Assembly: GCA_905178155.1 (NCBI GenBank)
Contig: CAJINV010000005.1
Span: 7,618,989 to 7,682,988 of the forward strand
From: Amoebophrya sp. A120
Lineage: Eukaryota; Protista; Dinoflagellata
Reading direction: 5' to 3'
DNA length: 64,000 nucleotides
Shown here: positions 3,447 to 64,000 of the stretch, in pieces
Position numbering within the stretch: position 1 is the first letter of the stretch
Layout: each line of letters begins with the position of its first letter
Position numbers and translations under genes: made by a program
The notes under the pieces: model-generated
Database searches by the model: none
The model's input: the letters and a program-made list of their open reading frames with translations, nothing else
Told to the model about the DNA's origin: nothing

Positions 3447-4298
3447 TCGAGGTCGTCTAGTCTGAGCGGGGCATATTCTAACTACGGCCCACACTCTATG
3501 GATGTGTCAGGTTTGAAATCGTCAAAGTTGAGATAGTTTGTCATGCACAAAACGGATACCGGTTAGACCTACAGTCTGTAGTCGGTGCATGGCAAATTTT
3601 CCCGGTCCTGGAAGCGAGTCTGTCATGCGGTTTAGGGTAAAAGGGCTGCCTTCTGTCATGCTAGTTAGCAGTCCAACTTTTGACCATTACCAGGACTATA
3701 ATCGGCCTCCCGTGGGTCCTCTGCAATAGAGTCACTTTTTGTATCGCATTTTCGGCACTGCAAATTATTTCAACTTTGACGATTTCAAACCTGACGCTTC
3801 CATACACTTGCTTCGCACGCAGATCAGCGTGGACAAGCAGACCACCTGCCGGAAGGCGGTCGATTATGCATTGCAAAAGTATCGTATTAGTACAAATTGC
3901 ATTACAAATTTTATCAGAAAGCCAAATGAAATTTGTAATGCTAGTTCAGGTAAAAAGGTAGGTTTGTCATGCAAGATTGCCATTTCTACGAGTGCGATAC
4001 TTCTGCACAGCATATCGATGCGGGGAAGTCAATGATGCTTGCTCAACAACCACCTCCTGCAGAACCGGTAACGGACGACTCGGTGTGCATAATGACCGCC
4101 GTTGCGACGCATTACTCCTCCGCGGAAAAGGCGAGGTACAAGACCGGTGTTGAGCAGCAGAAGTTTAGTGGTGATCCTGCCGCCGCGTTTCGCGATCCCG
4201 CCACAATTCCCGATCTCGCCACTGTGCCGGTGTTCTTCGCTAGCGCGAACAATGCGCTGCAAACATGCTGCACTGTATGGCCCGCTCGCATCGACTAG
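3447..4298 (+). CDS. Small Cys-containing protein, paralog B (5' exon not resolved), with two TIR introns
   Basis: Removing 3497-3804 and 3865-4014 (each +5 nt TSD) gives SRSSSLSGAYSNYGPH.LRTQISVDKQTTCRKAVDAGKSMM...LQTCCTVWPARID*, which aligns to paralog A. Confidence 0.65.
3497..3804. mobile_element. TIR introner, family C
   Basis: tatggatgtgtcaggtttgaaatcgtcaaagttga ... tcaactttgacgatttcaaacctgacgcttccata; TSD cactc/cactt. Confidence 0.9.
3865..4014. mobile_element. TIR introner, family B
   Basis: tatgcattgcaaaagtatcgta ... tgcgatacttctgcacagcata; TSD tcgat/tcgat. Confidence 0.92.
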
Positions 4299-4601
4299 CC
4301 ACCTTGATTTTTATTCGACGGCTTGTGTGTCTGTGTGCATGATTGATTTGGATTGCTAGTAAGTCGCAATCTCAACCGCATTGATAATTGTCTGCAATTG
4401 CAATTTCGGCGCCACTTGTAGTGTTCAGTACTTTTCATATAGTCGATGTCATGCTCATGATCTACTTATGTAAAATCATTTATACAACAAAGATGAAGAT
4501 CTAGTTGTAGATGTACATGCGCGTGACAAGGAGCGCAAAACAAAGATGCTCGCGGTCCCGGGACCGGGACGTAAGAACGGGGATGCGGTTGCGTTTCTTA
4601 G

Positions 4602-5115
4602 CTGAGATGGTCTAGTCATCTGAGCGGTGCATATCGTGGCTACGGTCCAAACTTGATTGCGCCGGCCGTATGGAAGTGGGAAAACTCCCCCTCCCCCTCG
4701 TTTGTATATGCAAACTACCAAATCCAGTGGGTCTGGTAGTTTGCATTCTGCATCGTGTCCACCAACGTGGTTTGTAGTCCTCCGGTGGATTTAATCCACC
4801 AGCCACCACTTGGGCTCACTTGCACTTCCTTGCGTTATTCAAGCTAGAGCACGACTAGGACAACTCGCATAGGTAATTTTGGTGGAGCCTGAAAGAGTAC
4901 CACTACTACATCAGTCGGTCCGTGTGTACTAGGTCATTTCTTCGTAATACGAAGGGCCCATGATTTCTGCCATTTGTGCCGCTTGTAGTTTTGCCGTTCA
5001 TTTATACCTCTAGTACACAAATAAGGGGGCGAGGGTGTAGTGCACTATCATAGGCCGCAAACAAGCAGCAGAACCGGAAGCAGCGCCGCTCCGATTCAAT
5101 TTCTTGCTGCTGAGG
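4602..5115 (+). pseudogene. Paralog C of the tandem family, truncated or short
   Basis: After tttcttag the exon reads LRWSSHLSGAYRGYGPNLIAPA, matching paralog B SSSLSGAYSNYGPH; after introner removal it stops early (..SDSISCC*). Confidence 0.45.
4669..5052. mobile_element. TIR introner, family E (diverged)
   Basis: tatggaagtgggaaaactccccctccccct ... gggggcgagggtgtagtgcactatcata; TSD ggccg/ggccg. Confidence 0.82.
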
Positions 5116-5116
5116 C

Positions 5117-6776: not shown

Positions 6777-9700
6777 ATGTCTTGGCCTCGTGGTATTCGT
6801 GTTGCTTTCCTGTTTGACTTTATTGCCGGTCCATTCCCACTCTTTGCGGCCGGGAGCGGAACACCAGGAGCTGGAGAAAGCCTAATTGCGGACGACACCA
6901 AGCGAAAGCTGGCGGCCCATGGGATCTTTGTCCCGGATGAAAAGCGAGATGCTGACCCAGGAACAAGCGGAAGCACAGGTCTTTCTGTCTCCTTCGAAAT
7001 GGAACTTCGTGAGGAGGAGCCACTACTTCTTGATGTGGTTCCCACGACCGCCGCATCAGCTGCACAACCACAATCCATTTCTTCAACAGCCGCAGTGGCT
7101 GAGGAGCCTGGCCAGGAAGAATTACTACAAAGCCGAACTGGAACTACAGTAACAGTAGAAGCTGCTGCAGCTCCTGCGAGGGACAAAGATAAAAAACTCG
7201 TCGTCGAGGTTGGTGTTAACGACGCTTCAGTGTATGACGAATTTAAAGAGCAGGAGAACGTCTTGGTAGTTGGATTTGAACCCGTTTTGGACAAATACGC
7301 GAGGGTGGTGACAAAATACTATTCGCCTGATGAAACTGGTGATGATGTTGTAGACACAACTACACAAACTCCAACAACTTCTTGCGCTGCAACTACAACA
7401 GCACTGTGCATTTCGTGGAAGGATTTGTGGTCAGTACCCGGGAAATACCTGGTTTTTCCCTTTGCGGTCGGGGATGATACGGTAACGACAGTAGAAGAAG
7501 CAGCTGAAGAAGTTGTACTGGAAGAAGGGCAAGAAGAAGTTCAAGGTGGTCCTGATCTTCATCTTCATTTTGGCTCGTCCACTCCGCATGACAAACCGCA
7601 ACATCGAAGCGAGAAGCATCTTCTCAGTATCAAGAAATACCTTCCCTTCCACATCGCGAAGCTCGACGGGTGCTCGTCTTTATCAAAAATCGACTCCAAG
7701 AAGCTCGATGGGTTACTCCCCGGCACCGTTCCCACCCAGGTTTTCGCAGATGCAGAGGAGGAGAGGAAGGAAAAATCCTCCACGGCTAGGAAGGAACAGC
7801 AGGACCTGCACAAGGCCTTCTGGACGGAGCGGTGTGGAAAGACTTTGTCAACGAGAATTGTCCCGGTCGTGAGTCTGCGGACTTTGTTGGACTCCGGGGT
7901 AATTGGAATGCTGCAAAGCAATAGGAAGAACAGCATCGACTTCTTGAAGATCGACGCGCAGGGGTATGACGTGGACGTCGTCGGGTCCATTCTCGCCAAC
8001 ACACCTCAGTTTGACATTGTAAGAGATTGATAGCAGCATTCCCTCCTGCTCCGCATTTTATGGAAGTAGGAGATGTTCGCTTCTGGACCATCTGCGGTGG
8101 AAACTGAGGAACAAAGGAGGGTGTTACATACAGAGCTAGAGGCCTTCCCTATGTATGATCTATTATTGTGGCAGGTGTACGTACAAAGTTGTCCATATGA
8201 TTACTCGCTCACCTCCGATCATGCGATTGATCTTGATCTTGAGATTCTCATCTTCTCCCTTGTTTCGCAGCTTAGAATCTGCATCGGCAGTTTCCGCCGT
8301 TTCCCCTCCAATACCGGTTCAGCGGCTGTTGAACATGACGCACTACTCGCTGGACGCCATGTATGCAAGAAAAAAACTGTATAAGTGTAAATCTGTCATG
8401 CAGAAAATGCAAAACAGTTACACTTGTCATGCTCGACATGCATGATCGGCTCGCTTCCTATGTGTTTTCCCTTCCTATCTGCGCATAACAAGTTTTTCTT
8501 GTCATGGCAGACAAACTTGTGATGTTGTTTTCCCAAAAGACTCACACTAACACAGTTTTTTTCTTGGATACCATGCTGATTGAAAACGAGGGGAGATTCA
8601 TGCACCGACTGTTGAAGCTGGACGCAACTATACAACCCCACAATGAGCTGCATTCCCGCATGACAAGTTCTGTTTCTGGATCTGGTGTAGTACCTTCACC
8701 GCAGCATCACAAACTCTTCCACTTCTCTCCGCGCTCCCAGCTCTTGCTCCAAAGAGCGATCAAATCCATTCAACTAGAAATGACGGCGGACATTTGCAAC
8801 ATCCCGTACCAGCACGCGCCGCTTTGCTCGCAGGCTTTGTTCATCATGAACTTGCTGAACTACACGACTTTGGGGGACAACTGCGGCGACTTGCTGTGTA
8901 TCGAGTGCAAATATGTCTGGCTCTGGGTCTGGAAGATTGCGAGGTTTGTCGTGCTAGTCTGGCATGACTCTGAGCTCTGTATTGCGTGACCACAAGAAAC
9001 AGCTTCTCTCGCCTGTCATGCAAAAACGCAGCTTCTCATGGTCATGCGGAATACGCAGCACAGAAGCACGAAGAAACTTGTCATGCTTGGCGGCGCATTG
9101 CAGTGCGCTTATTATTGACTTACTTGCATCACAACTTCCCAGACCCAGACATATTTGCAATGCATACTGTGGTCAAGGGAGCACTCCTTCTGCACGACCG
9201 ATTTTTTGTTTTTTCAGAAGAAATTTTCGTTCAACGAGATCGGGTTATACGCCGACGCGGTCTTTTATTCCCTGAAAATCAACCACATTCCCCATCCAAT
9301 TTGTGATGCAAAACACGCAGTAAGGCCTGTCGTGCGTGTCATGCGAAAAGTGGACGATGGTTAATTTTCAGGGAATATCTTTAAACGGAGGAGGCTGGGA
9401 CTGGGGGTAGGGGACCCGTATGAAGAGGTTGTGAAGGGGAAATTGTTGGCAGATAAAGCAAAGATGGAAAGCAAAAATAAACCAGACGGCAGTGATGCCA
9501 ATCATGTTGGCGATCATTCTGATTCACAGCATGTCGTCGAGAAGATGAACAAATCAGCCACAGTAGTAACAAGCCCAAGAAGTAGGACGCGCTTGATGAC
9601 CTGGAAAGGCCGTCTGCAAGTGCTGGATCAGTTTCCGATCCGGTTACGAGAAGCGAGAGCGGGGACCCCCGATAATGTTACTACAGGACAAACAACAGAA

Positions 9701-10393: not shown

Positions 10394-10574
10394 TATTCTT
10401 TACTACGGTTGACTGAGTAAAAGGTAGTGACACCGTAATCGACTTCGACAGAAAGCCAAAGCACAAAAAACCCTGCATCGAGAGTTCGCTATCACAGGTG
10501 ATATGATTTGGTGTTCCAGGCTCGAGCATTTCGGCGGTTCGATTGAGGTCACCAGCGTGTATTATCATTATGCC

Positions 10575-11720
10575 GATAATTCGACTTCGCATTCATATGT
10601 GTCGCAGCGGCCTGCTTTCCTTTCTTTTAGTGCGCGCCCCGGCCGGCGCGTGATAACTAAAAAGGGCCGGGCCCGTTCGCTCGCGGCCGCGCCGGAAGGC
10701 GAAGCGGAAGCCAGCGCGCAGCCCCCTCCTAGCGACCCGGCGGCAGCGCCCGGCGGGCGCAGCCGCGCCGGGGATACAGGCAGCCACCGCGCTGATGAGA
10801 ACCAACGCCACGGCACGACGCCGCTGGGTGACAGGGAAGCAAGGCAGGGGCCGGGGGGCCCGCCAGGTTCGGCGGAGCCGCGCCGCCTTCCCGCTGCCCT
10901 GCGTGCGTGTGTCTCCGGCCCGGTGCATTCAGTGGACCGACGCGCGGGCGCCCGCCGCCTAGCATCGGCCCGCACGCTGCCCGGCCGGACTCCGGGGCGG
11001 GGCCAGCGAGGCAGGGAGGCAGGCGGCAGCGGTCGAAGCACAAACGGCGAGCCGTGAAGCGCCTGCCTTTGCCGCGAGGAGTTTACGTGACGCACGCAAG
11101 GCAACAGGGAACCGCCCGCGGTCGGCCCGTGCGCGTGGTATGGTTCAGAGGGCGCGCGGGTCGGGCCCGTGCGTTGCCCCCCGCCCGCTCTTTGGTTCGC
11201 ACGCCTGCCGGCGGGGCCTTCCACGCACCCCCCCGCGGGCGGCCGGAGTTGCATCCCCGGCCCGCGCCTCCACCTTGGCTGGCGTGGGCGTAGACATTGC
11301 GCGCCAAAATGGCCCGCCCCCGCATTAATTCGCCCACAGTGGTGGCCGGGCGGGTCGGCGTCGGTCGGTCGGGCGAGCGTCTGTGGCGCACCAAGGCAAG
11401 GGAGCCGGGGCCCGCCGCCCCGCCCGCGCGCCCGCCTCCATGCTTGCTGCCAACCAAGCGCGCGCCCGCCTCCAAGCGTCACCTCAGATTAATTATTTTC
11501 GCGGCGCGAGTGCCCGTCCCGTCGTGGTTCGCTGGGTATTGTTGCCGACCCCGCCTGTGCTTCCCTCATTTCCCCCCCTGTGGGCGAGGGGTTGATGCGA
11601 GCTACCATAGCCAGAGCGTGTTGCCTCGTCCCCGGGGCCCATTCCCTGCTGGTGTTTGTTGTGCAGCCACGAAGGAGCCACAGCCAGCTGTGTGCGATTG
11701 CGATGCCCCCAAAGAAACCT
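10575..11720. other. GC-rich degenerate island, probable decayed repeat or transposon; boundaries approximate
   Basis: Abrupt GC rise; overlapping R/G/P/A-rich ORFs in many frames; no recognisable domain. Confidence 0.45.
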
Positions 11721-12549
11721 TCCTGTCGCGAGCAGCAAATGTTGGAACTGATCGCCTTGCTTTCGTGATGGCGCAGTGTTAGTTTGAGCGGATCGTCGAC
11801 AAGGTAACAAACTGTGAGAGATTCGTCGTCGCCATAGTATTGATTCAGTGTCGTGGTGGCTCGTAAATCTTCCTCCATGCCGTGGTCCTCTGCTTCGCCG
11901 CCCTCATTCGATCTTACTTATGAGTATGACGATAATTATTCGGGCCAGCCTATTTTCTGTACGTATGCCATGTCATATTTCTGTGCGCAGAAGTGTCGTG
12001 TGTTTTCTTCTCAATGAATAAAATCTAGCACGAAATAGACTGTATTTCGAGTGTTGCCCGATTCACCTTCAGTGCAATCTTTTCTATGTTCATTTCTTCG
12101 CGGCAAAATGACTGCCCAGCACGACCGCAGAACTTCTTCTAGAGGCACACCCAACCGTGGCCCCGACGGAACACTACAGGAACAGCCAGAGTTTGTCGGA
12201 CAGGAACCTTGCTTCTACACCAGTGGTTTCAAAATCAGCTCCAAGAACCTGCACGTAAAATTTTTCACCGCGGCCGCGACCGCCGGTATCTCCACGAACT
12301 CGAAGAACGGCTCGCAGCCACGACCGACAATATGCTGATTTTCAACTGACTCTTCGATTGTTTGACGAGGACCTCCGACTGCCGAGGAACGTGAAAATTA
12401 GTGATACGCAAGAACAACAAATCTTCATCTGAAACAGCTGAGAATAAAGCATCTACAACAATTGAGTTGTACGTCGACAATCGCAATCCGACCACGAAGT
12501 AGCAGCTGCCTCTGTTTGTTCATCTTCACCGAGCCGACCACCCAAGAAC

Positions 12550-14637
12550 ATGTTGGAAAAGTATTTTTCCAAGGCAGTGAACCATGCCAAATTGAACTCC
12601 AAAAAGTTCTTTTTCAACAGTGCGAGGACAACATCGAAAAACAAAGCTTCTGACCACCTCTTTCCGCACAACCTGACTCGGAATTACTTCACAAGCAGGA
12701 CCAGTAGGAACAGTGCCACGAAATTGAACAACTTTTTCAAAACTTCTGGGACTAGAATCAACTACAGCACCACTACGACTAGCCGTCTTCTGTTCCAGAC
12801 CCTCCGAGTGAGATTGCAACACTTCTCGAAATTGACCCAAGCCTACGCTGCGGGGAATCCAGTGAAGTTCGGTGTCGTGATTTCTGGTTTGAAAACTCTG
12901 TTGGCCGTATGACAGTGCACAACCCCCCCTCCCCCTCATTTGTATGGCATGAACAGCAATACAAACACCAGCGCACATGGACCCTAGTATGCATGACAAA
13001 TCTATGTGCTTACCTAATATAGTATTGTGTGGGCTTCCGAAATTTGTCATGCAAATAGTGCCACAGGGCAGCGACTGGATTTGGGATTTTGCATGACAAA
13101 TGAGGGGAAGGGGGAGTTGTGCACTGTCATAAGCCGATTTTGTCGTGCAGAAATACGTGGAACGGCGGGAAGAGATCGACAAAACAAGAAGCTTGCTGTT
13201 CGGCTGCTGGGGAATTTGTTGGTTAGGCGGTGTGCAGTATTTCATCCACGTGCATTTGTTCGCGCACAAACTCTTCCCCCAAGCTGCGGCCTTTGTGGCG
13301 AAGGTATATTTTACTATGATGAATCTTTGGTCCGATGGATCTGGATGTGGGTCTTTTAATTTTCTGGTCCTTATCGTGCATGACAAACTCAGTTTCACGT
13401 GCTGACTTAGCATGAGAAACTCATCAAACAATCACTTCTCCAGTCTTTCAACGCGAAGCTTGCGGACAAGGTTGGACAGCGGATCGTGGCGAAGCAGGTG
13501 TTTCTGGATCAATTTATCCACCACCCGTTTATGTTCTTCCCCGCTTTCTACTGCGTCATATCAAATGCAAATATGTCTGGGTCTGGAAGACTGCCAGACT
13601 TGTCATGCAGGTTTTCCATGACTCATGAGGTCTGGTATGTAGGACATAGCATGACAGATTCTGCGACCCTTCTATCATGCCTATCCTGCATCAGACACTG
13701 CCTCTCGATTAGGTCAAAAGTGGACAGCTTTTGGTAATCCTGCAATACAGATTTTTACATGATTCAGATGTAGCATGAGAAGTTGCTCTGTTCTTCCAGA
13801 CCCGCCGGACACTTTTGCATTTGATACGTCAAGGCTTTAGTCGAAACGAATCCACGACCTTCTGCTGAACAGTCACCGTCCTCTGTGAAAGAGAAAGACG
13901 TGAAGACCATTGTCGAGGACGAAGTTATCGGGTACGCATTTGCTTTATCCTGTGCAAAAGTATCGTACTCGTATTGCAATCATGCATTACAAATCTTCTT
14001 TTTAAGGTAAACTTGCATATACAAATTTCCTCTCTCATGCTGAGGAACTTTGTAATGCATTTATACGAGTGCGATGCTTTTGCAGTGCATATGCTTCGAA
14101 AATCGAAACCGCGGTGAAAACTGGATTGGGAAATTACGCAAAAAACTGGCAGGATGATTTGAAGACGTGTTGGCAGGTATAGATTTTGTTTACTAGAGTG
14201 TTGCTTGTCCTCAACCTCATTCATCATGAAGATGGAAGCATGACTGGCATGCGTCGAGATCTGTGATGCAGAATCAACGGAATGAAGTCACCAGTGCTGC
14301 TGGCATCCTGGTTCCAGGAGCAGGAGCATGACACAGCGACTTGACGAAAGAAACTCAAATTTTCCATGCAGAAAAATCACCAAACGAACATCAGATTTGG
14401 GTCCCGGCAATGACGATCAACTTCTCCGTTTGCCCCCTTTGGGCCCGAGTTCCCTTCGTCGCGGGTGTCAGTCTGTTTTTCACGATGTTGCTGTCTGCGA
14501 AACGGGGTGCGCCGTTGACAAGTGAGGATGCGGATAACGTCAAAAACGGGTTGAAGAGAACACCCTCCGAGTTTGCTGCGGAAATGGAGAAGAAACAACA
14601 TGAAGTTGACGTGTGCGAAAAGATCGCGTATGAATGA
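12550..14637 (+). CDS. Mpv17/PMP22 family membrane protein
   Basis: Spliced product ..GLKTLLADFVVQKYVE..IDKTRSLLFGCWG..KQVFLDQFIHHPFMFFPAFY..CWQIWVPAMTINFSVCPLWARVPFVAGVSLFFTMLLS. TIR introns 12908-13131, 13559-13826, 13946-14091; GT-AG introns 13304-13443, 14177-14394. Confidence 0.88.
12908..13131. mobile_element. TIR introner, family E
   Basis: tatgacagtgcacaacccccc ... ggggagttgtgcactgtcata; TSD ggccg/agccg. Confidence 0.92.
13559..13826. mobile_element. TIR introner, family A
   Basis: tatcaaatgcaaatatgtctgggtctggaa ... acttttgcatttgata; TSD cgtca/cgtca. Confidence 0.92.
13946..14091. mobile_element. TIR introner, family B
   Basis: tatcctgtgcaaaagtatcgtactcgta ... tacgagtgcgatgcttttgcagtgcata; TSD tgctt/tgctt. 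Confidence 0.92.
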
Positions 14638-16599: not shown

Positions 16600-19500
16600 A
16601 TGAAAGCTTCCTCCTCGAAGCCTAAATCGAAGCCGAACGGGCTAAGCGGCGGCTCTCTACTCGCAAAAGCGAAATCTAAAGCGGGTGGACCCGGATCGAG
16701 ACCGGCCGCAGCCGCGTCGACCATAGCGGGAGTAGCAGTGCCTGTGAGCGAGGTGGACGCGGAAAGCAGCGTTGCTCCGTCGCCAATACCAGAATCTGCA
16801 GCAGCTCCTGCGGAGTTTGATGCAGCGGATTCCAAGAATCTACCTGTGGTCACTGCTGATCACACTGACACGGCCGAGGACATCGATTCTGACGACGATT
16901 TGATTAATTACTACAATGAAACCCTGCAGGAACTCGTCGAGGACAAGAAATCTGAGCTTCTGTACATGAAAACGTTTCTCAACAAGATCGCGGACGAGGT
17001 TTTGCCCGATCCAGCTTTGAATCAGAAGTTGCACATGGGGTTCTACAGGTTGCTGATGAACAGAATGGAGGAGATTGAAGAATTAATGGACATTCTGATG
17101 TCGGCGCCGGATAATTCTAGTAGTGCAGATTCATCTTCTATCCACAGTAAATTTCCCGTACAACACGTAAGAGCAAATCCAAATGCGGTGTCTGCATGAC
17201 AAAACCAGGCTTCCATCCTAGTTTAGCATGACAAGTGATGTTACGCGCCAACTTGGTAAAATTTGTGATGCATCTTGGGCATGTTGTACGCAAAAGTTGT
17301 ATTGCATATCTTCCACCGGTGGACCAGGTAAAATCACTCTCGACATCATCCAGCGCGCCAGCGAGTACGACATTCCGGAAGAGTATGGATGTGTCATGAC
17401 CGAAATCGACAAAATCGAAAAACTTGTGACGCATAAAATGTAGGCCACTGAAGGCCTGTATTGGGGAACAGGCAAATGAGACCGATTGCAAGCCTGGTGT
17501 TTAGGGGTATGCAATGTGCTGTCAGAGTAGCATGACAGGAGCAGTCTTCTTTGCCCAAGCAGCACGACAGACTGGATGTGGGTGCTCCCGAAATTTGTCA
17601 TGCACCACTCGAAAACTGAAGCCCCAACTGATATCGATTTTGTGCATCACAAATTTTTTGACTTTGTCAATTTCGACTCTGACACTTCCATAAAGAGCTT
17701 CTTCAGGCCGGAAGGCAGCGGCTGCAGGAAGACCAAGTATTGGAGCAAAACCGGTTCTGGCACGGGCGAAACGCTATGGATTGCAAAAATGTCTGGGTCT
17801 GGAAGAATGCGAGATCTGTCATGCAGTTTTTGCCTGACCCAGATCGTCTGGCATGCAAGCTCTAGCATCACAGATTTTAAGCACTTATTCCAATGCCTAA
17901 TCCGCATGACAAATCCTCTCTCTCGGAAACAAGAAATGGGGCTTTTTGATAGCCATGCATGACAGATTTTATCATGATGTAGAATTCGCATCACAAATTC
18001 GAATCCTTCCAGACCCAGACATTTTTGCATTTGATAAACGCGAGCGCTGTAGCAGGGAATCAAAATCGAAACAACAGTACTTCTAACGGAGGTTCTTCCT
18101 CTCCAAACACAACGAAAAAGCAACTACTAGACCAGTTGAAACTCCAGCAGGCGGAAGAGCAGGCAAAACTAGTCGAAAAAACGGAAAAGTTGAAATTGAA
18201 AATGCTCGGGTTTTGGACCTTGCACGAGAAAATCGAGAATTTTGAGCAGAGGAAACATGGTTCAACTTTATTCCAAGAAGTGTTGAAGTTCTTCGATGTC
18301 TACGCCAACCCTCTGATGTTGGACTTGGATTGCGTTTTACCCGCGCCAGATGTTGCTTCTGTTTCTGGAAGTGCCGCAGGAGGAGGGGTGAAATCGTTCG
18401 CCCGCAGCGGTGCTTCTTCCTCCTCCAGCACGAAGCCGAAGACCGGGAAAACCCTTTTGCAGCGCATCTGCAACTCGACAAAGCTCCCCCACGAACTGCA
18501 GCTGCAATTGCTCGAGCACTTGCTAAAAAAAGGCGCGCACATGCAGCTCGCGGTGTCCTACTACGTGTCCGCGCAGATGTTCAACTCCCAAATCGGCGGT
18601 GGGGCGGAGCAGCCATACACTTTCAGCCACATTGAGGAAATTGTCCGGTTGTTTGTCTCGCATTTCCAAACACAGCATCAAGCGGTTTCTGAACAAGGCG
18701 GCAGCAGCACGTCCTTTCACGAGGAGGATTTTGAAAGCTGTATCGCCGCTTTGGGAGAAACGGTCGATGGAAAATTGCACGGATTTGGGTACTTGAATAT
18801 GATGAGCGGAGCAATAGACCATGAACTGCAAGGTGGTCAACATATCAAACAAAAAAGTGTAGTTAACGTTAACGGTTTCCATAGATGATCGCAAATATGC
18901 ATGACAAATTTTGCCTAGCATGCATGCACGCTATGCTTGACAAATTTGGGCACATTTTGTGATGCATATACTGCATCACAAATTCCGTTAACGTTAACGC
19001 TTTTTCCTGTGATACAGCAAGAAGATCCGAACGCAGCAATTCTCGAAGCGACCACACTCTCCCACAAACTCCGGGATCATTTAGCAACAGTTTACGACAA
19101 TTGGAAGCAGAAACTGCTTAAAAAATCTTCCTCCGCGAGCCTGTCATCAACAGGCGATGGCAGTATGCAAATCGGCTTACCACTCTCCAAACCCTGGCCA
19201 CAACTCTTCCGGGATGTCTTGATGCCGACTAGCGACCGTGACACATCCGCGGACGCTGCGAACCAACTGAAAAAAATCCAGCATATGAAATGCAAATATG
19301 TCTAGGTCTGGAAGAATGCATGTTTGTCATGCTTGTCTGGCATGACTCTTAGACCTGTCATGCACGTTGCCCAAGAGCTTCACTTTTCTGTGATGCTGGA
19401 ACGCAGTTTGTCATGCAGAATAGGCAACACCTAGAAGCTCAGAAACTTGTCATGCTGAGCCAGTATTTGTGGCCTCATCATGAGACGCCACCCAGCATCA

Positions 19501-21653: not shown

Positions 21654-21654
21654 T

Positions 21655-22360
21655 CGAATTATGAACTTTATCCATGAAACACATGGAAATGGATCGTGTT
21701 CAAGTTCACCATGAGACTGCGGACACATAAATCAATGGAAAAAAAAGGATGCAAAAAAACAAAATAAATTGCCAAATCTCAGGCAACTGAAATCAGAATC
21801 ACATGATACACAAACCAAATTCCACAAACTGGACCTAAATGATTACCTGCAAACAAGAACAACTCTGATTGATATAAATTGAGTTGAAACCTATCATGAA
21901 ATAATCAATCACCATCACCAATTTCAATTTTGATATATGATTTTAGGATGAAAATCGAAATATCTGTGAGATCATCTTCTGAATCTCAAATGAGAATGAA
22001 ATTCATGATTCTTGGATCGAGATCTCTTCTTGGATCATATCTAGATATGAGAAGAAGAAAAAGATTCTTGGATCGATTGGATATCGATTACCAAATAATG
22101 TGATCTGATTCATTTCTTTGGATGATATGGTCCGAAATATTATTTCATTTTCTTCTCGTTTTCTCTCTCTCTCTGTTATATTATTTGTGTCTCATTCTTC
22201 TATCTCTGATAATTATATGAGTCCAATTTTGAAATCTCAGAATATATTATTTTTCATCGAATCGACAAAAAATAATTCATTCTGATATGATATCAGATTT
22301 TGAATCGATACCATATCGAATCGATTCGAAGCAAGGAATGGAACACATATCGAATTATTA
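21655..22360. other. AT-rich degenerate island, left part; continues at 25719-26360 beyond the Helitron
   Basis: Low GC, rich in TCGA/GATC/ATAT; same composition on both sides of the insertion. Confidence 0.5.
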
Positions 22361-52630: not shown

Positions 52631-55375
52631 ACGTGCTTGCTCGTCTCAATCCGCACGCCGCCCTCCTGTTCGATTTCGTTCGTACTGCCCAATCCGAATC
52701 TGGAGGAGATATCCTTGTCTCGAGTAATCACCAGACGCCAGTTGGAAAAGGATTCGAACTTCTTTTTCTGTTCTTTCAATTCCCTTTTCCGCGAGAAAGC
52801 GAGCTGTTTCAGTTGGTTGTATTTTTCTTGCAGTTTCTCATGCTGGTTCTGCAGGACGGAATTATATTGATGTTCTGTTGTACCGATCGAAGATGCAGCG
52901 CCGCCTCCTGCTGCATCGGCGGAAAGACCAGTTGGCAGCTGCCCAACCACACCGAAACTCGAGGAATTTGTAGCAGTGCTGAGATTCGCTGGTGTGAAGC
53001 GATTCCCGAATCTCGTGTGCATGGAATTACTCGCTCCAACGAGGTATCCTGTGCGAAAGTATCGTACTCGTAGTAATCGCACTTATGCATCACAAATCCA
53101 CTTGTTAAGGTAAATCCGCATTTAGAAACTTAATTTGTAATGCTGAGCTAATTATTTGTATTGCGATTTATACTAGTACGATGCGTTTGCACTTCATACG
53201 AGACTGCTGTTGTTTGAAGGTCCACAGGAACTTGCAATGCTATTGTGCATCGGGGGCTCCACAAGGCTGATGGAGACGCTGTTGCTGGCGCTGTGGAGCG
53301 ACGACGTCTGGATGTTCTTGTAACCAGCAGCAGTAGCAGTAGCACTATCCTCCTCCACTGTGGTTGACTTGGACTGCAAACCAGTGGTATTTTGACCCTG
53401 CTTGCTGGTTCCACCGCCTCCATTCAGCACATTCTTCCTCACTTCTACCCTGGGCGTCCGCAGCTTGCTCGGCTTCAACTCGTCACTATCCGCCGTGTTG
53501 GCTCTTGTTCGCTGTTTCGGCTGAAACATCAGACTGTGTGCGTTCGAGTTGTTCCTCGGCCGTTGCTTCAGCGGACTGGGGATCTTTGTTGGCAACTGCA
53601 GCAGCGCTTTCGAGTTGTTGTTTGTCATTCCTGTCGAGAAGCTAGAACTTCCGCTGTTTCTTCTTTGCTCCTGATCGAGAACCTGATCCGTCGTCCTAGA
53701 ACTGGTGTTTTCATCTCCGTCCCCAGAAGACTGCGAGTCGCGCTTCAGTTGACTCACCACAGATGAATCATGGTCTTTCTCATTCAACGGTGGATACAGG
53801 ACTTCTTGTTTTTGTAAGATTTGCGCACTCTGTTGGATCACCAGGGAACTGGCCTTCTCCACCATAGCACCGATGTTCTTCAGCTGGGCCAAGGCGAAGT
53901 GGTTCACGCCAGATGTTGCGGAAGTACAACTAGACGATGTGTCGGCTAGTATTTGCGGCTGCTGATGCTGCTGGAACCCAGATGAATCAGGAAAAGCAGC
54001 AGGCCCGTGATCTTCATTGCTGTTTGTCGTCGATTTGGTTTTCACCTGCTCCATCCACCACCAATTTTGCTCCCGAAGTTTCTGTCGTTCCTGCTTATTC
54101 ATCTTCGGTTGCAGCTGGCGGGAAGCAGAGGATGAACTAGCAGAGTTTGTTGTGCTACGGGGAACTACACCTCCACCGGTCGTCAGGTAGTTGTTAGTTG
54201 TACCAGCACCACCTCCCAGAGCAGCAGAAACAAGCGCTCCCGGTTGGAAGTTTAAACTCGAAGTGGTTGATGTAATAGTACCACCAGCCCCTGCCCCTGC
54301 CCCTGCAGTGCCAATCGGGTGTCCGGCCAGTCCTCCAGCAGTCGCGCTTGTGGCCGCAAACGGAACCACGTTGATGGCAGGAGTTGTAGTTCCGAGCAAC
54401 CGTGGCTGCGTCGTGGTAGTCGGGGTGGGGATATGAACTGCAAAAGTATCGTATTCGTATAAATGCATTACAAATTTCCTCAGCATGAGAAATAAAATTT
54501 GTACTGCGAATTTACCTTGAGAAAAAGATTTGTAATGCATGATTGCAATACGAGTGCGATACTTTTGCACAGGATAGGGGATTTTCACAGACACACCTCC
54601 AGCGCCAGGTGGTTGCTGCAAGGAGGTGCCTGCTGTTGCCCCGTGGCCTCCTACTGTAGTAGAAGTCATCGCGGACGCAGACGTGTTCTGGTACAGGGTA
54701 GCAGAGTGGAGCTGGTTTTTTTTTTTTTGTGGTGAATCTGTCATGCAGAATCAGATTCAGAAAGGGATGAAGAGAGGTTTACTTTATGATCTGCGTCACT
54801 CTCACTACCTTGATCTATCATTTTTTTCATAGCACGACAAACGATGATTTATCTTCTTCGTATGAGAATACCCTCGCTCCTCCGGCATGACTGGAACTGC
54901 TGCTGCTGCTGCCTCCTCCGGCGATTCCGTTACCGACATGCTCCCTCGCCACCAACAGCGGGCTCCTCGTCTGGTACAGCTGGATCGGTATCCACAGTAA
55001 ATTTCCTGTACAAACATGTACAAAAACAAATAATGCGGTCCCTGCATGACAAGATTTTGTTGTAATAATTCTAGTCAGCATGACTAGCGGCATGCTCCAA
55101 GTTGGTGAAATTTGTGATGCATTTTGTACATGTACTACAGGAAATCGAAATAGTTTGTATTGCATACTCGGCGTGGTCGTAGTACTGAGAATCGGCGTGG
55201 TGCTCCTGGACTGGCCAGACGCAAATTGGCTTACGACTCCGGAAGTCGGCCGTTGCGTGGAGACGCTGGCGCACCGGGAGGGCTGGTTCGAAGCACCAGG
55301 TGGCGCGGCGTGGAGGGTGCTGCTTGTCGGTGTGCCTGCGGTCGTCACGCAACGAGGTGCGGGGAAAAGAGACAT
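52510..55375 (-). CDS. Low-complexity S/T/G/Q-rich hypothetical protein with a short coiled coil near the C-terminus
   Basis: ORF pieces join in frame after removing TIR introns 54989-55166, 54432-54576, 53045-53198 and GT-AG intron 54712-54871. Confidence 0.7.
53045..53198. mobile_element. TIR introner, family B
   Basis: Family B ends; TSD cgagg/cgaga. Confidence 0.9.
54432..54576. mobile_element. TIR introner, family B (in-frame, stop-free on the coding strand)
   Basis: tatgaactgcaaaagtatcg ... cgatacttttgcacaggata; TSD gggga/gggga. Confidence 0.92.
54989..55166. mobile_element. TIR introner, family D
   Basis: tatccacagtaaatttcctgtac ... tttgtattgcata; TSD atcgg/ctcgg. Confidence 0.9.
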
Positions 55376-56791: not shown

Positions 56792-58175
56792 TCAACAAGA
56801 CCAGGTCGCCTGGTTTGTCCGTTGCTGTATGTCCAATGCGAGAGAGAACAGGTTCTCCTGACCCGGACCACCACCCCTGATTCTTCCACACACGATATCA
56901 CACAGAAAAAAGCTGGCAGGGCACATTTGTAATGCAAAACTAAATACACAAAAAAACCTGTATTGCATATCGGAAGCAGCATGCTATGGGGCAACCCGTG
57001 ACAAGTTTCTGATCTGCGTGTGTTTATTTTTGCATTACAAATATGCCCTGTCAGCTTTTTTCTGTGTGATACACGACGAGGCTCGGAGCACTGGGAAGAA
57101 GCACTATGTTGTCCTCATTCCATTTCTATCAGATGTAAAAGTGTCCGGGTCTGGAAACTTGTGATGCTGGGTGGCGTCTCAAGATGAGGCCACAAATGCT
57201 GGCTCAGCATGATAAGTTTCTGAGCTTCTAGGTGTTGCCTATTCTGCATGACAAACTGCGTTCCTGCATCACAGAAAAATGGAGCTCTTGTGTAAGTAAC
57301 GTGCCTGACAGATTTAAGAGTCATGCCAGACAAGCATGACAAACATGCATTCTTCCAGACCCAGACATTTTTGCACTTGATAATTTCCAGCCTGCTAGCT
57401 TGTCCAAGTCCTCGTGCGAAAGCCGCACACGCTTTGTGAATATGCGAAACCGACCGAAGCCGTCGCCATATCTCCGGCCCGGAAGGTCGAGCAGAAGAAA
57501 CACGTTGTTCATCGGGTCAACATCGTCAATGTTGTACCCCGGCGGCCGGACACGTGGATAAGCGTATGCAGGATTCCATCGGGGACGAAGCGGCTCGACA
57601 GACGGCTGGATAAATAACGGCTGCGCTTGCGGCCCTGGCTCGCGCAGTGCGTTTTCCAGGAGATGCAGAAAATACCGAAAGCTGTCATCTAGGGTCTGCG
57701 CTGGTTTTTTGTAGTTTATCTTCGTCCTGCTGTCCGCGTTGGTCCTCAAGTTCTCGGGCTCGACGTAGGATAACAACTGTGTCGCGAAACCCATCTCCGG
57801 GAGGGTGCTCGCGACCACAGAACCGCGAAAGAGGCGACTAGCACCGCGAATGGGGCCTGCCTGCTGACCGGGGTAGAGCAGCAGGTGGCAAAACCGTTTC
57901 CAGGAGTGTTCCTTCAGACGCTCACCCTTTTCATAGAGTTCTCGGTCCTTTGCTAAAGTTAGCCAGTTGTTTCCCGATGCCGATGGTCCCCGGCCCGATG
58001 CCGGTGGTCCGGTCAACACGGCGTCAAAAATGGCGTGCAGCGGAAATTCTGCCAGAAAGGAACAAACATGGGCCACTACAGGATCATCAAGGTCAAGAGG
58101 ACCCGCAACCGCGGCAAGGGACGGGCCAGTGAGACAGAAAATGCCGAAGAGCAGCCGCGATCGCACAGACATCAT
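56792..58175 (-). CDS. Hypothetical protein with predicted signal peptide; two TIR introns
   Basis: MMSVRSRLLFGIFCLTGPSLA.. N-terminus; in-frame joins ..AGWK-WNEDNIVLLPSAPSLVV-CGRIRG..TWSC*. Confidence 0.65.
56896..57071. mobile_element. TIR introner, family K (long ~55-bp TIR)
   Basis: tatcacacagaaaaaagctggcagggcacatttgtaatgcaaaa ... ttttgcattacaaatatgccctgtcagcttttttctgtgtgata; TSD cacga/cacga. Confidence 0.93.
57127..57382. mobile_element. TIR introner, family A (A1, reverse orientation)
   Basis: Reverse complement of the 40424-type interior; TSD atttc/atttc. Confidence 0.93.
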
Positions 58176-60595
58176 CGTGTGCGCTTTGATGCTAGAAAGG
58201 TAGGGTTGGCGATGGTGCCTCGTCAAGAAAAATACCTATCTGTCTTCTATATTAAGAAAAATACTTAGCTGTGCTGTTCGTCAAAAGTTAACGAGGACTG
58301 CGAAAATTTTACTACTTAGAGTCGAGCGATCGTCCCCTCTTTTATTCAGTCTGTAGGTGGTGCAAGTGTAGAGCTTAGCTTTGTTTACTTAACTTAGGCT
58401 AGGGAGCAAAAGTTCAGCAGCGTAGCACGCGTCTAGTACCCTGTAAAAAAAAAAAAATGAAAGCAACGCGCGTTTTCTTTTTTCAGAGCGGCAGGATGTT
58501 GAGCATTAAAATTTTGTGTGTGTAGCTGCAGGAAGAGTTTTTCACTATTCGATGATCGTTAATATGGATATGCGATGATCGTCCTCCGTAGACTGCTACC
58601 ATGCTCGCCGGAACCACGATGCCAGGCGGTCCATTCTGATCTTTTTTTACTCGTTCGCTGATCACCTCCGTTCTCTACACCTGACTCGGATCAAGGTCCG
58701 CGCTAGGCTTGGCGGTGCGAGAAGTTGACTACTGCACCTCGATAAATATGATCTTCTTTCGCCAATTTTGCGCAGGACCGTCCCCGTCGTGCTCGTGCCT
58801 GAGACGAGTAATATTATTATGTAGAAGCACATGAAGATTGTTCGTTCAGGTGTGCAACTACTACAGGTCGTGATCCTTCCTTTTCGATTTTGCTCACTCT
58901 TTCATTTTCATCGCGAGAAGGTCGTGGATCACTGTGATGTCGAGCGCCACGATTTATTGATCAGGATCAGGTAGAGCTAGATAAGACGATCCTCGTTTAA
59001 TCTAATGCGTGTTTTTGATCCCTTATGTTGCTCTCCGCGCGGCTCTTGGAAGTTTTCTTCCCCTTGCCGGACAGGCTTGTGTTGTCAAATGAAATTTCGC
59101 GCAACAGATGTGTAAGAACAAAGAACTCCGAGACTTCTTAATTATATTTTTTTTGGATTTTTTTCATTTCAAAACTGGGTCGAAAATTTGTGCGAGAAAA
59201 TCCTACGGCGCAAAGTGCAGCACGTAAAAATGAAAAATGCATACTCGATGCATTGGCAGCATCTTCTTCGAAACTTTGTATTGTCATTTCCTCTAGCACC
59301 TCCTTGCGTTTATTCCGCTCTGTGCCAGCTCTTTCTCTACTCAATACCCAGGGGGGAATAAGTGTAAGAGTATGAAAGGCAGGGGCCGCGGTCTTCTACA
59401 TTGTTGTTGTCAAAAATTACCGACGCAGGAGGAGCTATTTTTATATTTTCTTTCGTGTCGTGCTTACTGTTACTTCTAAATGTCGTTCATTTCGCAGAAA
59501 AAATATTGTCTTCAAAATGAAGTTGGCTTGAGTTTTTCCATAGCCGTGACGCGACTAGGATTCGATGAGTGACTAGGATTAGCATTGTTTGCGCAATGTG
59601 CCATCAACTCTATTACGACGAGAAGAGAGATCATAGCACACAGCGCTTTCAAAATCATTTCTAGATACTATTGGGATGCTGGAGCTGACAAACACAAGCA
59701 ACGCGGTCCCTTTTACTTTATACTCATAGTTCTTTTCCTCGTTGTCGTTTGGATGCAAAAAAAAATGATAAAAGTCGTCGCAAAGTGCGTAGGTCATTTT
59801 AGAGAAAAAAAACAATATTAACGATCATTGAAAAGCGTCAAAAACATACGAGTTATATCTAGTTCTTTATACTGCTTCTTGTTAGGTATTTTTCCCTGAC
59901 GGCTGGAGGCAGGGAATATGCGTTGCAAATATGCTTGGGTCGGGAAAAAAATGGAACTTGTGATGCACGACCAAAAGTTTTTCAGCTCGTCGTGCAAAAT
60001 GAGTATGAGTCAGCAGTAAAATTGCATATACATCTCTGTTTCTTCTTGTGCCAAGGATTTCGCTTTTTTTCAGATGAAATGACCTTCAAGTATTAAAAGG
60101 TCTCCTGATATAGCGAGCTAATGCTAAAAAAGTTGTATCCGTACTAATCGGTAATTTTGCCTGTAAGAAAACGCTTGCACTAAGTATCCGTACTATGCGT
60201 GACTTCCTTACTTAACCACACGCTGCGGCGGAAGCGCCACTGCTGACAAGAAAGTAAATGTAAATATATCCAAAAGATAGGTCTATCGATGCTGGTGGTG
60301 CTCTTGACATCAATATCAATTCCAAGGGTGGTAAAGTAGATTAGATGGAACGCTTAATAAATCTAAAACTAGTGTTAAAGGAGGGTCCAACTGTACTACT
60401 TTATCGTCTTTTGTTGCTGAAGCGCGGAGGTGGACCATACCGTACGAAGAAAAAGACAGAATTATAAATATACCTGGTGGATCATATAATCGCGATGGTT
60501 AGTTTGCCCTAGATGACTACGTTGTTCGAATGCGTGAAATGAATTTTATTTATTTCGCAGAAATAATTATACGAGCTTTTTACTCCTCGTCAAGG

Positions 60596-63500
60596 TCACC
60601 TCTTCGGGGCGTTTTTGCTGTTTCCCCTCGCGGCTCTCGCTGGACTAGTTAACGGTTTCTTGTTCATCTGCAACTGCTGCTGACTACCTTGAGATGAATC
60701 AATTTTTCCCTGCTTTTTCCCACCCGTTAATACCACAGTTGGCTTCGCATTTTCATTTCCATTCGCTGCCGAGGAGGAGGAGGCTCCTGCGCTATTCGAG
60801 CTGCTGCTACTCGACGAGGACACAGCTGCACCTCCACGGGACTGGGGTTGCGCACCTCCTCGTCCTCGTCCTGGTGACGACACAGTACTTTTCTTACCCG
60901 CAGCTACAACAGAAGTTGTAGATGAGGTCGGGGCGCCGGCCTTGGCCACTGAAGTGGAGCGCGAGCCTGCTTGTTTAGAAGTACCACCACCACCAGCTTT
61001 AATCACACCAGCGCCAGCAGATGAAGATGATGCCACTTTCGATGCGCTCGGCTTCGCACGGCTAGCGGTGTTAGTGATCCCGGCACGGAGGTTTTTGTGG
61101 AGCAGACCCCCGGCCTTCTGTCTATTCGCGGCCGGCGTTTGCTGGACCACAGCACGGGAGGCTTTTATCAAATGCAAAAGTGTCTGGGTCTGGAAACTTG
61201 TGATGCTGGGCGGCGTATCAAGAGGAGGCCACAAGTGCTGGCTCAGCATGACAAGTTTCTGAGCTTCTAGGTGGTGTTGCCTACTCTGCATGACAGACTG
61301 CGTTTCTGCATGACAGAAAAGTGGGGCTCTTGGGTAACGTGCATGACAGATTTAAAAGTCATGCCGGAGAAGCATGACAAACATGCAGATGCACTCTTCC
61401 AGACCCAGACATTTTTGCATTTTATAGCTTTATTGATGCTACTAGACGGTTTCTTCGCTGGCGCCTTGGCGTTGTTCGAAGAAGAAGCTGCGGTATGCCA
61501 GCCTCAGGTTGGAAATCCTCAGAGTGGAAATGCTTTGTAATGCAAAAAAACGACTCCAGTTGAAGCGGCATTTGTAGTAGGCGCATGACAAATTTCCCGG
61601 GCACTTACAGCATGTTTGTCATGCAGGTTAAGGCAAGGGGGTGCCCTTCTGTCGTGCTAAGCAGCACTCCAATTATTCACCCCTAGCAGGACAATAGTCA
61701 GCCTCCATTGCGTCCTCTGCAATACAGTCTTTTTTGCGTCGCATTTCATGCATCACAAACCATTTCCCTTTGGAGGATTTCCATTCTGAGGCTTTCATAT
61801 GCGGTTGTATTCTGTTTCATCGCGGCCTGCTGCTGTTTCATTTCCTGCTCGAGAGCAAGTGCAGCCTGTTTTTCCTTTTCCTGCCGTTCCTATCCTGTGT
61901 AAAAACGTCCCCACACCATAGTTGTCATGCAACTCTGCATGCTTAGAATTTTTCTCATGCGGAGCCCCATGAGAAGCATTCTCTAATGTGGTTTTGACAT
62001 TTGTCATGCTCCAATCAGCATGAGATACTAGATCTGTAATGCTGCTGAACTAGCTCAAACAGCACCACACTACGCGTCCAAATTTGTCATGCCAAACAAC
62101 CAAAGCTGTGTGATTTGTCTAGCACATTCCCCATGTTGACTCTGGTGTGGGGACGTTTTTACACAGGATAGTTCCTGCTCCATCTTTTGTCTCTCCTGCT
62201 GCTCGCGCAGAAACTGCTCCTCCTCCAATTATGCATTCGCAAATACCATGTCTGGGTCTGGAAGATTGTCACGCATCATCTGTAGGACTAGGATCTATCA
62301 CACAGTAGATGGTGGTCGTCTGGAATGCGAATGCACGAAAGCGCGTCACATACTACGGAAGAGCTTCGTAATTTAATTACGAAGCTCTTTCCGCATGAGA
62401 GATTCGCCCTTTGTATCGGGAGTTGTGACGGACTTTTCTTTGGCGTTCACGCAAGAACACATACTTGTGTACGATCTAGACTTGGCATGACATTGACAAG
62501 TTCCAGACGCAGACATATTTATTAGTTTGCAGTGGATACCAATCTTTCCCGGGCAATTCTCATCCGCACCTCGTCCTGTTTCGAAAAGCGCTCCTGCCAC
62601 TCCTTATCGCAAGAAAAAACTGCTTCACTGTAAACTTGTGATGCATAAAATGGAACGCAAACGCGTTTGTCTTGCTATACATGCAAGACATTGGCTTTTT
62701 CAGTGTGTTTTCCATTGCGAAGTACGCATGGCAAGTTTTCTTTGCCATGTGTAACAAATTTGTCATACAAAACTTGCAAAATCCTTACAGTGAAACAGTT
62801 TTTTCTCACGATACTCCTCCGGTAGAGAGTAGTGTTCCAGCCACTGTTGCAACAAAGCCGACTCCATCGCCTTCATATTCTTCTTTTCCGCGATTGTCAG
62901 CCGCGGGTCGTGAATCCGGCACGCCGGCTATCCTGAGTAAAAACGTCCCTACCGCAGAGTTGTCAGGCAAATCTGCATGCCAAAAAAGTTTGTCATGCGG
63001 AGCGCGATGAGAGGCATTCTCTAGTAGCCATGTTCTGGAATTTGTGATGCTATAATCAGCATGATAGGCTAGATCTGTGTTGCTGCTGAACTACTTAAAC
63101 AGGATTAAGATTACACTACAAGGAAAAACTTGCCATGCCAAACGACCAAAGCTGGTTGATTTGTCTAGCAGATTTCCCATCTTAACTCTGCTGATGTCGG
63201 GACGGTTTTACAAATGATACCGGGCGCTTCACATTTCTGTCCTCGATTTTCCAACCCCGGTGCAGCGCCGGGGGGTCCACGCTGCCTTTCAACTTCTGCC
63301 GGGTCATATGGATTGCAAAAGTGTCTGGGTCTGGAAGAGTGGAACTTGTAATGCTGTCTGCGGATTCTAAAAATATCTGTGTTGCATGAGCAGCAAGAGG
63401 AGTCAGTTCTTGGCACGCGGAAAGGGGGGCTTTTCTCATGCGTAATTAGCATCAAGAAGCTCTGCTCAAAAAATCTGTGATGCTAGTACCAGCATCACAG

Positions 63501-63973
63501 ACCTCACGAATCATGCAAAATGTGCATGACAAGTCTCGACTCTTCCAGACCCAGACATTTTTGCAGTTGATAGGTCACGGCGCACGCCATCAACGCTTGG
63601 TTGTTCTCGAGGTGGTGTTCGTATCGACAGTAAATTTCCCGTACACGTAAGTACAAATGCGGTATCTGCATGACAAAATTGGGCTTCGATCCTAGTTTAG
63701 CATGACAAGTGTTACACTCCAAATTGGTGAAATTTGTGATGTATCTTGTACATGTACGGAAAATTTGTATTGCATAGTTCGAGCTCCAAAAGCTCTAGTC
63801 CGTACCGGTAATGCTCCCCGTGACACTCCTTCATCTTCGCCAACAGCTCTGGTTCCAGTTCAATCGGTCTACTGAGGTACAAGAACGAATCCTTCCACTG
63901 CGGGAAGGCGAAGCTCAGGGTCGTTTGCATCGCTTTGATCCGTTCGAACAAGTAGTTGCAGAGCGGTTGGTTG
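60596..63973 (-). CDS. 3' part of a hypothetical protein (E/Q/K coiled coil and S/G/A-rich tail), 5'-truncated, with at least 8 TIR introns
   Basis: Exons join in frame: ..YGLELLELE-HHLENNQALMACAVT-RQKLKG..KRP-ACRIHDPR..LPEE-WQERF..ERL-EEEQFL..QE-RQEKE..TTA-ASSS..KA-SRAVV..PKR*. Confidence 0.75.
61166..61426. mobile_element. TIR introner, family A (A1, reverse orientation)
   Basis: Family A ends; TSD gcttt/gcttt. Confidence 0.93.
61494..61799. mobile_element. TIR introner, family N
   Basis: tatgccagcctcaggttggaaatcctc ... gaggatttccattctgaggctttcata; TSD tgcgg/tgcgg. Confidence 0.92.
61891..62170. mobile_element. TIR introner, family F
   Basis: Perfect TIR tatcctgtgtaaaaacgtccccacacca; TSD gttcc/gttcc. 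Confidence 0.94.
62230..62538. mobile_element. TIR introner, family A (diverged)
   Basis: Family A ends with small indels; TSD ccaat/ccaat. Confidence 0.88.
62605..62813. mobile_element. TIR introner, family G
   Basis: tatcgcaagaaaaaactg ... cagttttttctcacgata; TSD ctcct/ctcct. Confidence 0.91.
62929..63219. mobile_element. TIR introner, family F
   Basis: tatcctgagtaaaaacgtccc ... gggacggttttacaaatgata; TSD ccggc/ccggg. Confidence 0.9.
63307..63572. mobile_element. TIR introner, family A
   Basis: Family A ends; TSD ggtca/ggtca. Confidence 0.93.
63622..63776. mobile_element. TIR introner, family D
   Basis: tatcgacagtaaatttcccgtac ... gtacggaaaatttgtattgcata; TSD gttcg/gttcg. Confidence 0.93.
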
Positions 63974-64000
63974 TATCAAATGTAACAATGTCTGGGTCTG
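63974..64000. mobile_element. TIR introner, family A, truncated by the window end
   Basis: tatcaaatgtaacaatgtctgggtctg. Confidence 0.8.

Follow-up and report, generated by a model that had tools for sequence, protein, structure and literature searches.

Introners in a 64,000-nt window of the Amoebophrya sp. A120 genome: a predicted fixed excision register and a motif common to different families

How are genes expressed when they are interrupted many times over by transposon-like elements that lack the GT and AG ends of ordinary introns? This question is raised by a stretch of 64,000 nt from Amoebophrya sp. A120, contig CAJINV010000005.1 (the whole stretch is termed the window here). Amoebophrya is a parasite of algae. 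The elements resemble MITEs (transposable elements of miniature size with inverted repeats): they have terminal inverted repeats (TIRs), nearly all start with TAT and end with ATA, and they are flanked by a 5-bp target site duplication (TSD). The best explanation of the whole, to which we give a probability of roughly 0.6 from comparison of sequences, is that they are the published introners of this organism, that an integrase-type enzyme would insert them and that a relaxed spliceosome would remove them from RNA at a fixed register. Both the insertion step and the removal step are ones that we infer.

Elements were judged on the full window, and loci from metagenomes were kept as a separate set. 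The first scan required a perfect direct repeat and a TIR with at least 14 of 20 matches, the terminal letters being left free. At a repeat length of 5 it gave 38 matches, 28 of them TAT..ATA, compared with 3-5 matches in three shuffled windows; repeat lengths of 7-9 gave no matches in the window. A scored scan yielded 57 candidates in the window and none in three shuffles. Three candidates (22235, 25793 and 26009), AT-rich and without the motif described below, were dropped, and three elements were added by other routes (18360 from the end-agnostic scan, 42808 and 54989). The final set consists of 57 complete elements, 112-1076 bp in length with a median of 252 bp, which sum to 14,013 bp or 22% of the window. 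Ends are exactly TAT..ATA in 54, with one each of TGT..ACA, TGT..ATA and CAT..ATA; the TSD is perfect in 39, has one mismatch in 15 and two mismatches in 3. An earlier reading of this DNA (the sequence-only reading) had described 57 complete elements with such ends and 5-bp repeats, MITE-like in anatomy and with family-specific TIRs. The scans and their shuffled controls bear this out, including the 5-bp repeats, and only its count of 38 perfect repeats needs correction. Over 110 ends, the first three letters are T, A and T in 109, 107 and 110, and positions 11-13 have A in 87, 93 and 101. Besides the 57 there are four older elements, missed in the sequence-only reading, whose TIRs are weak or whose repeats are eroded (2322-2788, 3145-3475, 4276-4633 and 47907-48172). 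Short length, TIRs, TSDs, absence of coding capacity and many copies are all MITE properties.

Independent copies are found in metagenomes. A search pattern was taken from the ends of the largest family, which biases the loci towards that family; it matched at least 181 metagenome stretches, of which 172 loci (611 kb) were used, and had no matches in viral contigs. The loci carry the same families, with up to 96% identity. End-agnostic matches at length 5 are TAT..ATA in 272 of 299 cases, and among 405 metagenome elements the TSD is perfect in 318, the ends are exact in 393 and the motif is present in 398. Interiors form 17-18 clusters within the window alone and, with the metagenome copies added, 14-17 multi-member families and 39 singletons, instead of the approximately 12 families first proposed. 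Single linkage, which lumped 340 elements as one family, was rejected as chaining. Both orientations are seen in six of seven families.

Precise removal was assessed by asking whether a junction lies inside an open frame of at least 300 amino acids after deletion of the element plus 0 to 10 extra nucleotides. With 2, 5 or 8 extra nucleotides 52 of 61 junctions pass, as against 6-12 of 61 for the other eight lengths, and the earlier claim that removal of the element and one repeat copy restores the frame is thus sustained by a scripted test. By itself the frame test cannot separate 2, 5 and 8 nt; homology selects 5 nt at seven of nine junctions tried, 38190 and 31185 being uninformative. Annotated A120 proteins remove 11 of 12 elements as the element plus exactly 5 nt, and elements with only 15-19 of 28 TIR matches are still removed. 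The annotation reads into the twelfth element (4669), removal of which yields the C-terminus of the paralogues P0141 and P0143. In a coding test of the metagenome elements, removal of the element plus 5 nt passes in 143 of 405, compared with 27-45 for 3, 4, 6 or 7 nt. A search for stop-codon asymmetry between the repeat copies found no cases.

As the sequence-only reading had also said, GT-AG is not present at the element ends: it occurs at none of six registers in 55 elements, and cryptic GT-AG sites at the ends were rejected on this count (0 of 55 in register). Some frame-keeping GT..AG lies within 12 nt in 20 of 55 elements, with the exact length in only three. The idea that the TATG end is set 5′ as the better donor was likewise rejected, there being 25 TATG and 26 TATC.

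The exons of primase and DDX55 match, with 100% identity, proteins that carry the name Amoebophrya sp. A120, and the annotated protein P0139, which spans 2222-4736 of the window, bears the same name. According to the portions available of Farhat (2021; PMC7789003), 65% of RNA-supported A120 introns are non-canonical, and the introners are inverted repeats that start with TAT, followed by seven variable nucleotides and at least three A, with a mean length of about 240 nt and direct repeats of 3-5 nt (5 bp in the legend of Fig. S19). The annotated proteins were built from aligned transcripts; a likeness to MITEs was noted and the mechanism left open. The window elements are these introners, with the same end signature, repeat length, size and non-GT-AG ends, and no system-level difference from the description in those portions. 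In the available part of Gozashti (2025; PMC12130899), A120 family 38 is listed as Ginger with a 5-bp TSD and TA/TA termini. Family 38 is about 808 bp in length with open reading frames (ORFs), and no window element has such an ORF; the likeness is by description and not by sequence identity. Since these two papers describe them, both the system and the guess at the enzyme class are already in print. The sequence-only reading was right that direct- and inverted-repeat introns are known in Amoebophrya, and fell short in treating them as merely similar, the window proteins being identical to annotated A120 proteins. As stated, the finding is a rediscovery. Two additions, a fixed register and a cross-family motif, were not found in the literature searched, which lay mostly outside subscription papers and the figures of Farhat.

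The register can be read only where the repeat copies differ and the protein is known, and is given here as k, the count of upstream-copy bases inside the intron. At 35194-35509 and 31568-31816 the fourth TSD base differs and the upstream copy is retained (k 0-1); at 38190-38348 the third base differs, again with the upstream copy retained (k 0-2). The elements at 4276-4633 and 3145-3475 permit k 0-2 and k 1-3, respectively. At 3497-3804 the fifth base differs and the downstream copy is coding; here k 1-5 match P0139 and 0 fails. Only k = 1 is compatible with all six junctions, on both genome strands in transcript direction, and paralogues independently hold the residues implied at 3497 (H-L), 3145 and 4276. 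Because these six junctions with diverged repeats allow no other value, the intron very probably extends from 1 nt before TAT to 4 nt after ATA. Removal would be scarless, since 1 + 4 nt equals the 5-bp duplication. In the metagenome set, codon likelihood at repeat positions 2-4 favours the upstream copy at 20 of 26 mismatches (p 0.005, the grouping having been chosen afterwards). The predicted register makes removal checkable at roughly 30% of elements, i.e. those where the repeat copies differ.

With k = 1 the start of the intron reads N-T-A-T-(G/C), with T at +2 in 57 of 57, A at +3 in 56 of 57, T at +4 in 57 of 57 and G at +1 in 20 of 57; the first base and the last four bases are free. 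This putative 5′ end resembles a spliceosomal donor, GTAT, short of the +1 G only, and five of the eight GT-AG introns of the window begin with GTAT. A T-run at -18 to -15 (T in 36, 52, 49 and 43 of 57) is also the A-run of the TIR read backwards. In Table S4 of Farhat (2021) the nine commonest A120 non-canonical sites all have T second, and A25 introns, described in the portions available as starting TT with TTA repeats, would again place T at +2 and A at +3.

A relaxed spliceosome would cut the element from RNA, 1 nt before TAT and 4 nt after ATA. Being near-palindromic, the element would present one end like a donor and one like an acceptor in either orientation, because the same end, when reverse-complemented, yields a U-tract at -18 to -15. 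The resemblance to a donor, the T-run, the nearly complete set of A120 spliceosome proteins (Farhat, 2021) and a precedent in Fritillaria make the spliceosome the likeliest catalyst, with a slightly better than even chance. In Fritillaria borealis, as described in the available parts of two papers (PMC13326754, PMC11282704), MITE-derived non-GT-AG introns are removed in bulk by an adapted U2 spliceosome, and this is the model for the removal proposed in A120. It should be pointed out that F. borealis keeps preferred AG-AC/AG-AT ends and U1, whereas in A120 the terminal bases are free and U1 small nuclear RNA (snRNA) was not found. The dedicated excision pathway assumed in the sequence-only reading is not established, as the 5′ end in the predicted register looks like a spliceosomal donor minus the +1 G.

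The main rival is a dedicated non-spliceosomal system of the kind proposed for euglenids, which would cut and ligate in the same register, guided by the stem that the ends form or by a protein that they bind. It would accommodate several observations: terminal hairpins are strong in the two elements folded (z-scores -7.1 and -7.2, a stability reached by none of 200 shuffles), orientation does not affect removal, the intron has free first and last bases and U1 went undetected in A120. In the available parts of the euglenid papers (PMC12501133, PMC11282704), nonconventional introns likewise have no GT-AG, terminal pairing, TSD-like repeats and asymmetric stem offsets, the offset in Euglena being comparable (PMC12501133). 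However, the Euglena signature N3CDG...CH'GN5-6|R is absent from the window elements, where +4 is always T, exon +1 is a purine in 30 of 57 and the offsets amount to 1 and 4 nt. At positions 4-7 the agreement between the two ends of an element is no better than expected from the column frequencies, and in the 150-bp family end pairing falls below expectation (position 4, 0.27 vs 0.51; position 6, 0.20 vs 0.49); because of this lack of agreement, the ends look recognised by sequence. In addition, elements with poorly matched TIRs are still removed in the annotation, and the motif is present in GT-AG introns as well, with spliceosome proteins nearly complete. We regard such a cut-and-ligate system as rather unlikely.

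Excision from DNA in transcribing nuclei, in the manner of internal eliminated sequences, would suit the transposon-like ends, and the orientation-free motif with its partial helical phasing looks like a site in double-stranded DNA. Yet the predicted register follows transcript direction on both strands, as a symmetric DNA cut would not, and an independent assembly contains the elements just as the window does. To our knowledge, no separate germline nucleus has been described for Amoebophrya, and without one excised copies would be lost. Because the register follows transcription, DNA excision is highly improbable.

The interiors are not as unrelated as the sequence-only reading supposed, since one motif is common to 56 of the 57 window elements and to 29 of 36 interior clusters. 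Its loose form, GCA(T/C)NA(C/G)A, has 197 copies in the elements (13.7 kb) vs 57 copies in the 50.3 kb of the window outside them, with 98 forward and 99 reverse copies relative to the transcripts. The stricter form, GCAT(G/C/T)A(C/G)A, occurs 191 times in elements (13.6/kb; shuffle mean 2.4), twice in 13,028 bp of exons (0.15/kb) and six times in about 22 kb of intergenic DNA. The first copy is usually 33-49 bp from the element end, and a spacing of 31-33 bp is frequent between copies that run in the same direction. Ten GT-starting introns contain 10 copies of the stricter form (shuffle mean 0.37, maximum 3, 500 shuffles); two of the ten proved to be old elements, and the eight true GT-AG introns have 9 copies in 1,249 bp, distributed over six introns. 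TIRs were not detected in the motif-bearing GT-AG introns. The presence of the motif there means that either these introns are decayed elements or the motif helps define introns. In metagenome loci, outside elements, the motif is mildly tied to donor/acceptor context (0.30 vs 0.19). The sole literature match of the motif in an Amoebophrya paper was a primer and was set aside.

The motif shows hints of helical phasing and no more. Same-direction pairs in the window fit best with a period of 10.4 and divergent pairs with one of 9.9, and median p values with one element per family are 0.13 for same-direction, 0.017 for divergent and 0.43 for convergent pairs. With the phases fixed, a larger set gives a median p of 0.005 when all families are taken and of 0.018 when only those not seen in the window are taken; but when the period is left free, a scan of this larger set has its peak at 14-15 bp. 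Outside elements no phasing is seen (mean cosine 0.04, n = 19).

The motif is probably a protein-binding site, to judge from these patterns; it would be bound first by the mobiliser and possibly also be used to mark introns. A quite improbable extension is that introns are marked on DNA: a protein that recognises a specific DNA sequence, and that may be the binding domain of the mobilising integrase after domestication, would bind the orientation-free motif in element-derived and GT-AG introns and guide a U1-less spliceosome to the -1/+4 cuts, so that each insertion would be born a scarless intron. If it is true that the motif acts on DNA in splicing, introns would here be defined in a novel manner. 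The motif can also be looked at as bait for the mobiliser or for a new splicing factor.

As to insertion, an integrase-type transposase, encoded elsewhere and acting in trans, would make the 5-bp staggered cut. In the available passages on IS3EU/GingerRoot (PMC10045372, PMC6839031), termini are TA..TA with occasional TG..CA, the transposase is integrase-related and targets are GC-rich. The window elements are alike in their TA..TA termini and in a TSD GC content slightly above that of the flanks (0.59 vs 0.56). GingerRoot has TIRs of 100-150 bp and a length of 4-13 kb, and those passages do not describe introns. Membership in IS3EU/GingerRoot is not claimed because their TSDs are 6 bp. Ginger2/TDD agrees in its 4-5-bp TSD (one paper gives 6 bp) and differs in its TG..CA termini, found in only 1 of 57 window elements. 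That one IS3EU/GingerRoot/Ginger-like enzyme mobilised most families has about an even chance on this comparison. The single mobiliser of the sequence-only reading is plausible from the common ends, the motif and the TA termini.

Several unrelated transposases could instead have made the families, with common ends and motif kept because only well-spliced elements survive in genes. The division of interiors into many families and singletons is consistent with such an origin, as are the several classes, including a Mutator-like family, to which A120 introners are assigned in the available part of Gozashti (2025), the TGT..ACA ends and missing motif of 18360-18674, and the persistence of the motif in GT-AG introns. 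It is made doubtful by the one TSD length across families, by identical terminal 8-mers that recur in three large families and by a target bias that is symmetric in the window (C first in 23 of 55, G last in 19 of 55) and less clear in the metagenome set. The element at 18360-18674 has a 5-bp repeat and is removed in frame like the others; it is possibly Ginger2-like and would follow the same removal route.

A number of points weigh against integrase-type insertion followed by spliceosomal removal at a fixed register. The portions available of Farhat (2021) report neither a U1 snRNA nor a transposase in A120 and argue against general mobilisation by transposases. The absence of an enzyme from the window, noted earlier, is confirmed: 75 + 129 ORFs (36 in long metagenome elements) have no Pfam match to a transposase or integrase, and sub-threshold matches to DUF3807 and GNAT_like were not used. 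No cognate autonomous element was found in the window or among seven elements of >420 bp in the 611 kb of loci, and these seven encode nothing recognisable. The 5-bp TSD differs from the 6 bp of IS3EU/GingerRoot. The register depends on six junctions taken from public annotation, two of which (3145 and 4276) probably go back to one insertion that was duplicated, and the same annotation errs elsewhere, reading into 4669 and retaining a 150-nt primase intron. Codon likelihood in the metagenome set gives no support at position 1 (4 of 10) or position 5 (5 of 9). The T-second sites of Table S4 and the gt/at and ag/ac counts of Gozashti (2025) can result from the preferences of an aligner within perfect repeats. 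Selection towards canonical ends is not seen, with GT-AG in 8 of 157 at register 1 and about 6 expected, and TAT may be conserved for transposition alone.

Positions of the elements and of related introns are given in Table 1. Domain matches were found for the primase large subunit, DDX55/SPB4 and Mpv17, in line with the host genes first named. In model eukaryotes both primase and SPB4 are essential.

Table 1. Introner elements and associated features of the window
Feature	Positions	Strand	Remarks
P0139 gene, three-repeat	2322-2788, 3145-3475, 3497-3804, 3865-4014, 4276-4633, 4669-5052	+	six elements
FkbM-domain gene	8362-8570, 8899-9166, 9266-9377	+	three elements
Mpv17/PMP22 gene	12908-13131, 13559-13826, 13946-14091	+	three elements
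Mpv17 GT-AG introns	13304-13443, 14177-14394	+	two motif copies each; boundaries deduced from continuity of the frame
Gene of no known family	17139-17308, 17384-17692, 17775-18036, 18360-18674, 18843-19014, 19284-19535, 19625-19837, 20389-21464	+	eight elements
DDX55/SPB4	31185-31454, 31568-31816	-	two elements
Primase large subunit	35194-35509, 37083-37334, 37817-38079, 38190-38348	-	four elements
Primase GT-AG introns	35702-35815, 36078-36227, 36422-36565, 37590-37740 (motif), 36799-36918 (no motif)	-	five introns
Adenylate kinase-domain gene, first part	40424-40675, 41114-41378, 41668-41829, 42063-42340, 42459-42738, 42808-42953, 43013-43291, 43333-43584	-	
Adenylate kinase-domain gene, second part	43673-43913, 43993-44244, 44427-44624, 44671-44930, 44991-45252, 45518-45663, 45759-45978	-	
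Adenylate kinase-domain gene, third part	46088-46235, 46473-46629, 46695-46939, 47510-47833, 47907-48172 (weak), 49738-49892, 50025-50182	-	
Low-complexity gene	53045-53198, 54432-54576, 54989-55166	-	three elements
Two elements	56896-57071, 57127-57382	-	
Lone end of largest family	59917-59966	.	no partner end found
One gene, eight elements	61166-61426, 61494-61799, 61891-62170, 62230-62538, 62605-62813, 62929-63219, 63307-63572, 63622-63776	-	
Ninth element of the 61166-64000 gene	from 63974	-	cut by window end

In the P0139 gene the annotation deletes five elements as the element plus 5 nt and reads into the sixth (4669-5052). The element at 2322-2788 has a weak TIR and a perfect TSD. Those at 3145-3475 and 4276-4633 are related old elements with eroded TSDs at matching sites of an internal gene repeat, where they now have a GT donor and no AG acceptor; they are probably one insertion duplicated with the gene repeat. 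The primase intron retained in the public annotation (36078-36227) is an in-frame GT-AG intron of 150 nt, and homologues are without it.

The region 40424-50182 on the minus strand contains 21 elements and one weak one. Deletion of the weak element (47907-48172) fuses the adenylate kinase ORF with the ORF at 40.8-47.9 kb, which suggests one long gene with over 20 elements. A homologue search with the long 40-50 kb gene gave no match, and an Rfam search of the window gave none either.

Some introners have grown by internal insertion. In the metagenome set, L012 9473-10727, L072 3862-4492 and L037 632-1465 are long introners swollen in this way, and L012 and L072 appear by eye to have one inserted repeat in common. 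In the window, 20389-21464 contains a nested repeat. Another repeat family, which is GC-rich, has ends that differ from each other and lacks an evident TSD, is present at window 20424-~21341 and 22350-25718 (minus strand), at L026 777-~1569 and in L131; it is nested in two different introner families, has a form of ~3.4 kb between genes and gave no Pfam match. Intergenic blocks of about 60% GC at 10400-12400, 26400-28400 and 33000-34700 have no Rfam or Pfam match and no motif, and are possibly other repeats. Lastly, the stretch at 631-905 has short inverted ends, GTGAG...CTCAC, and a perfect 5-bp repeat whose last letters are AG; removed together with one repeat it would read GT-AG, and this may be chance.

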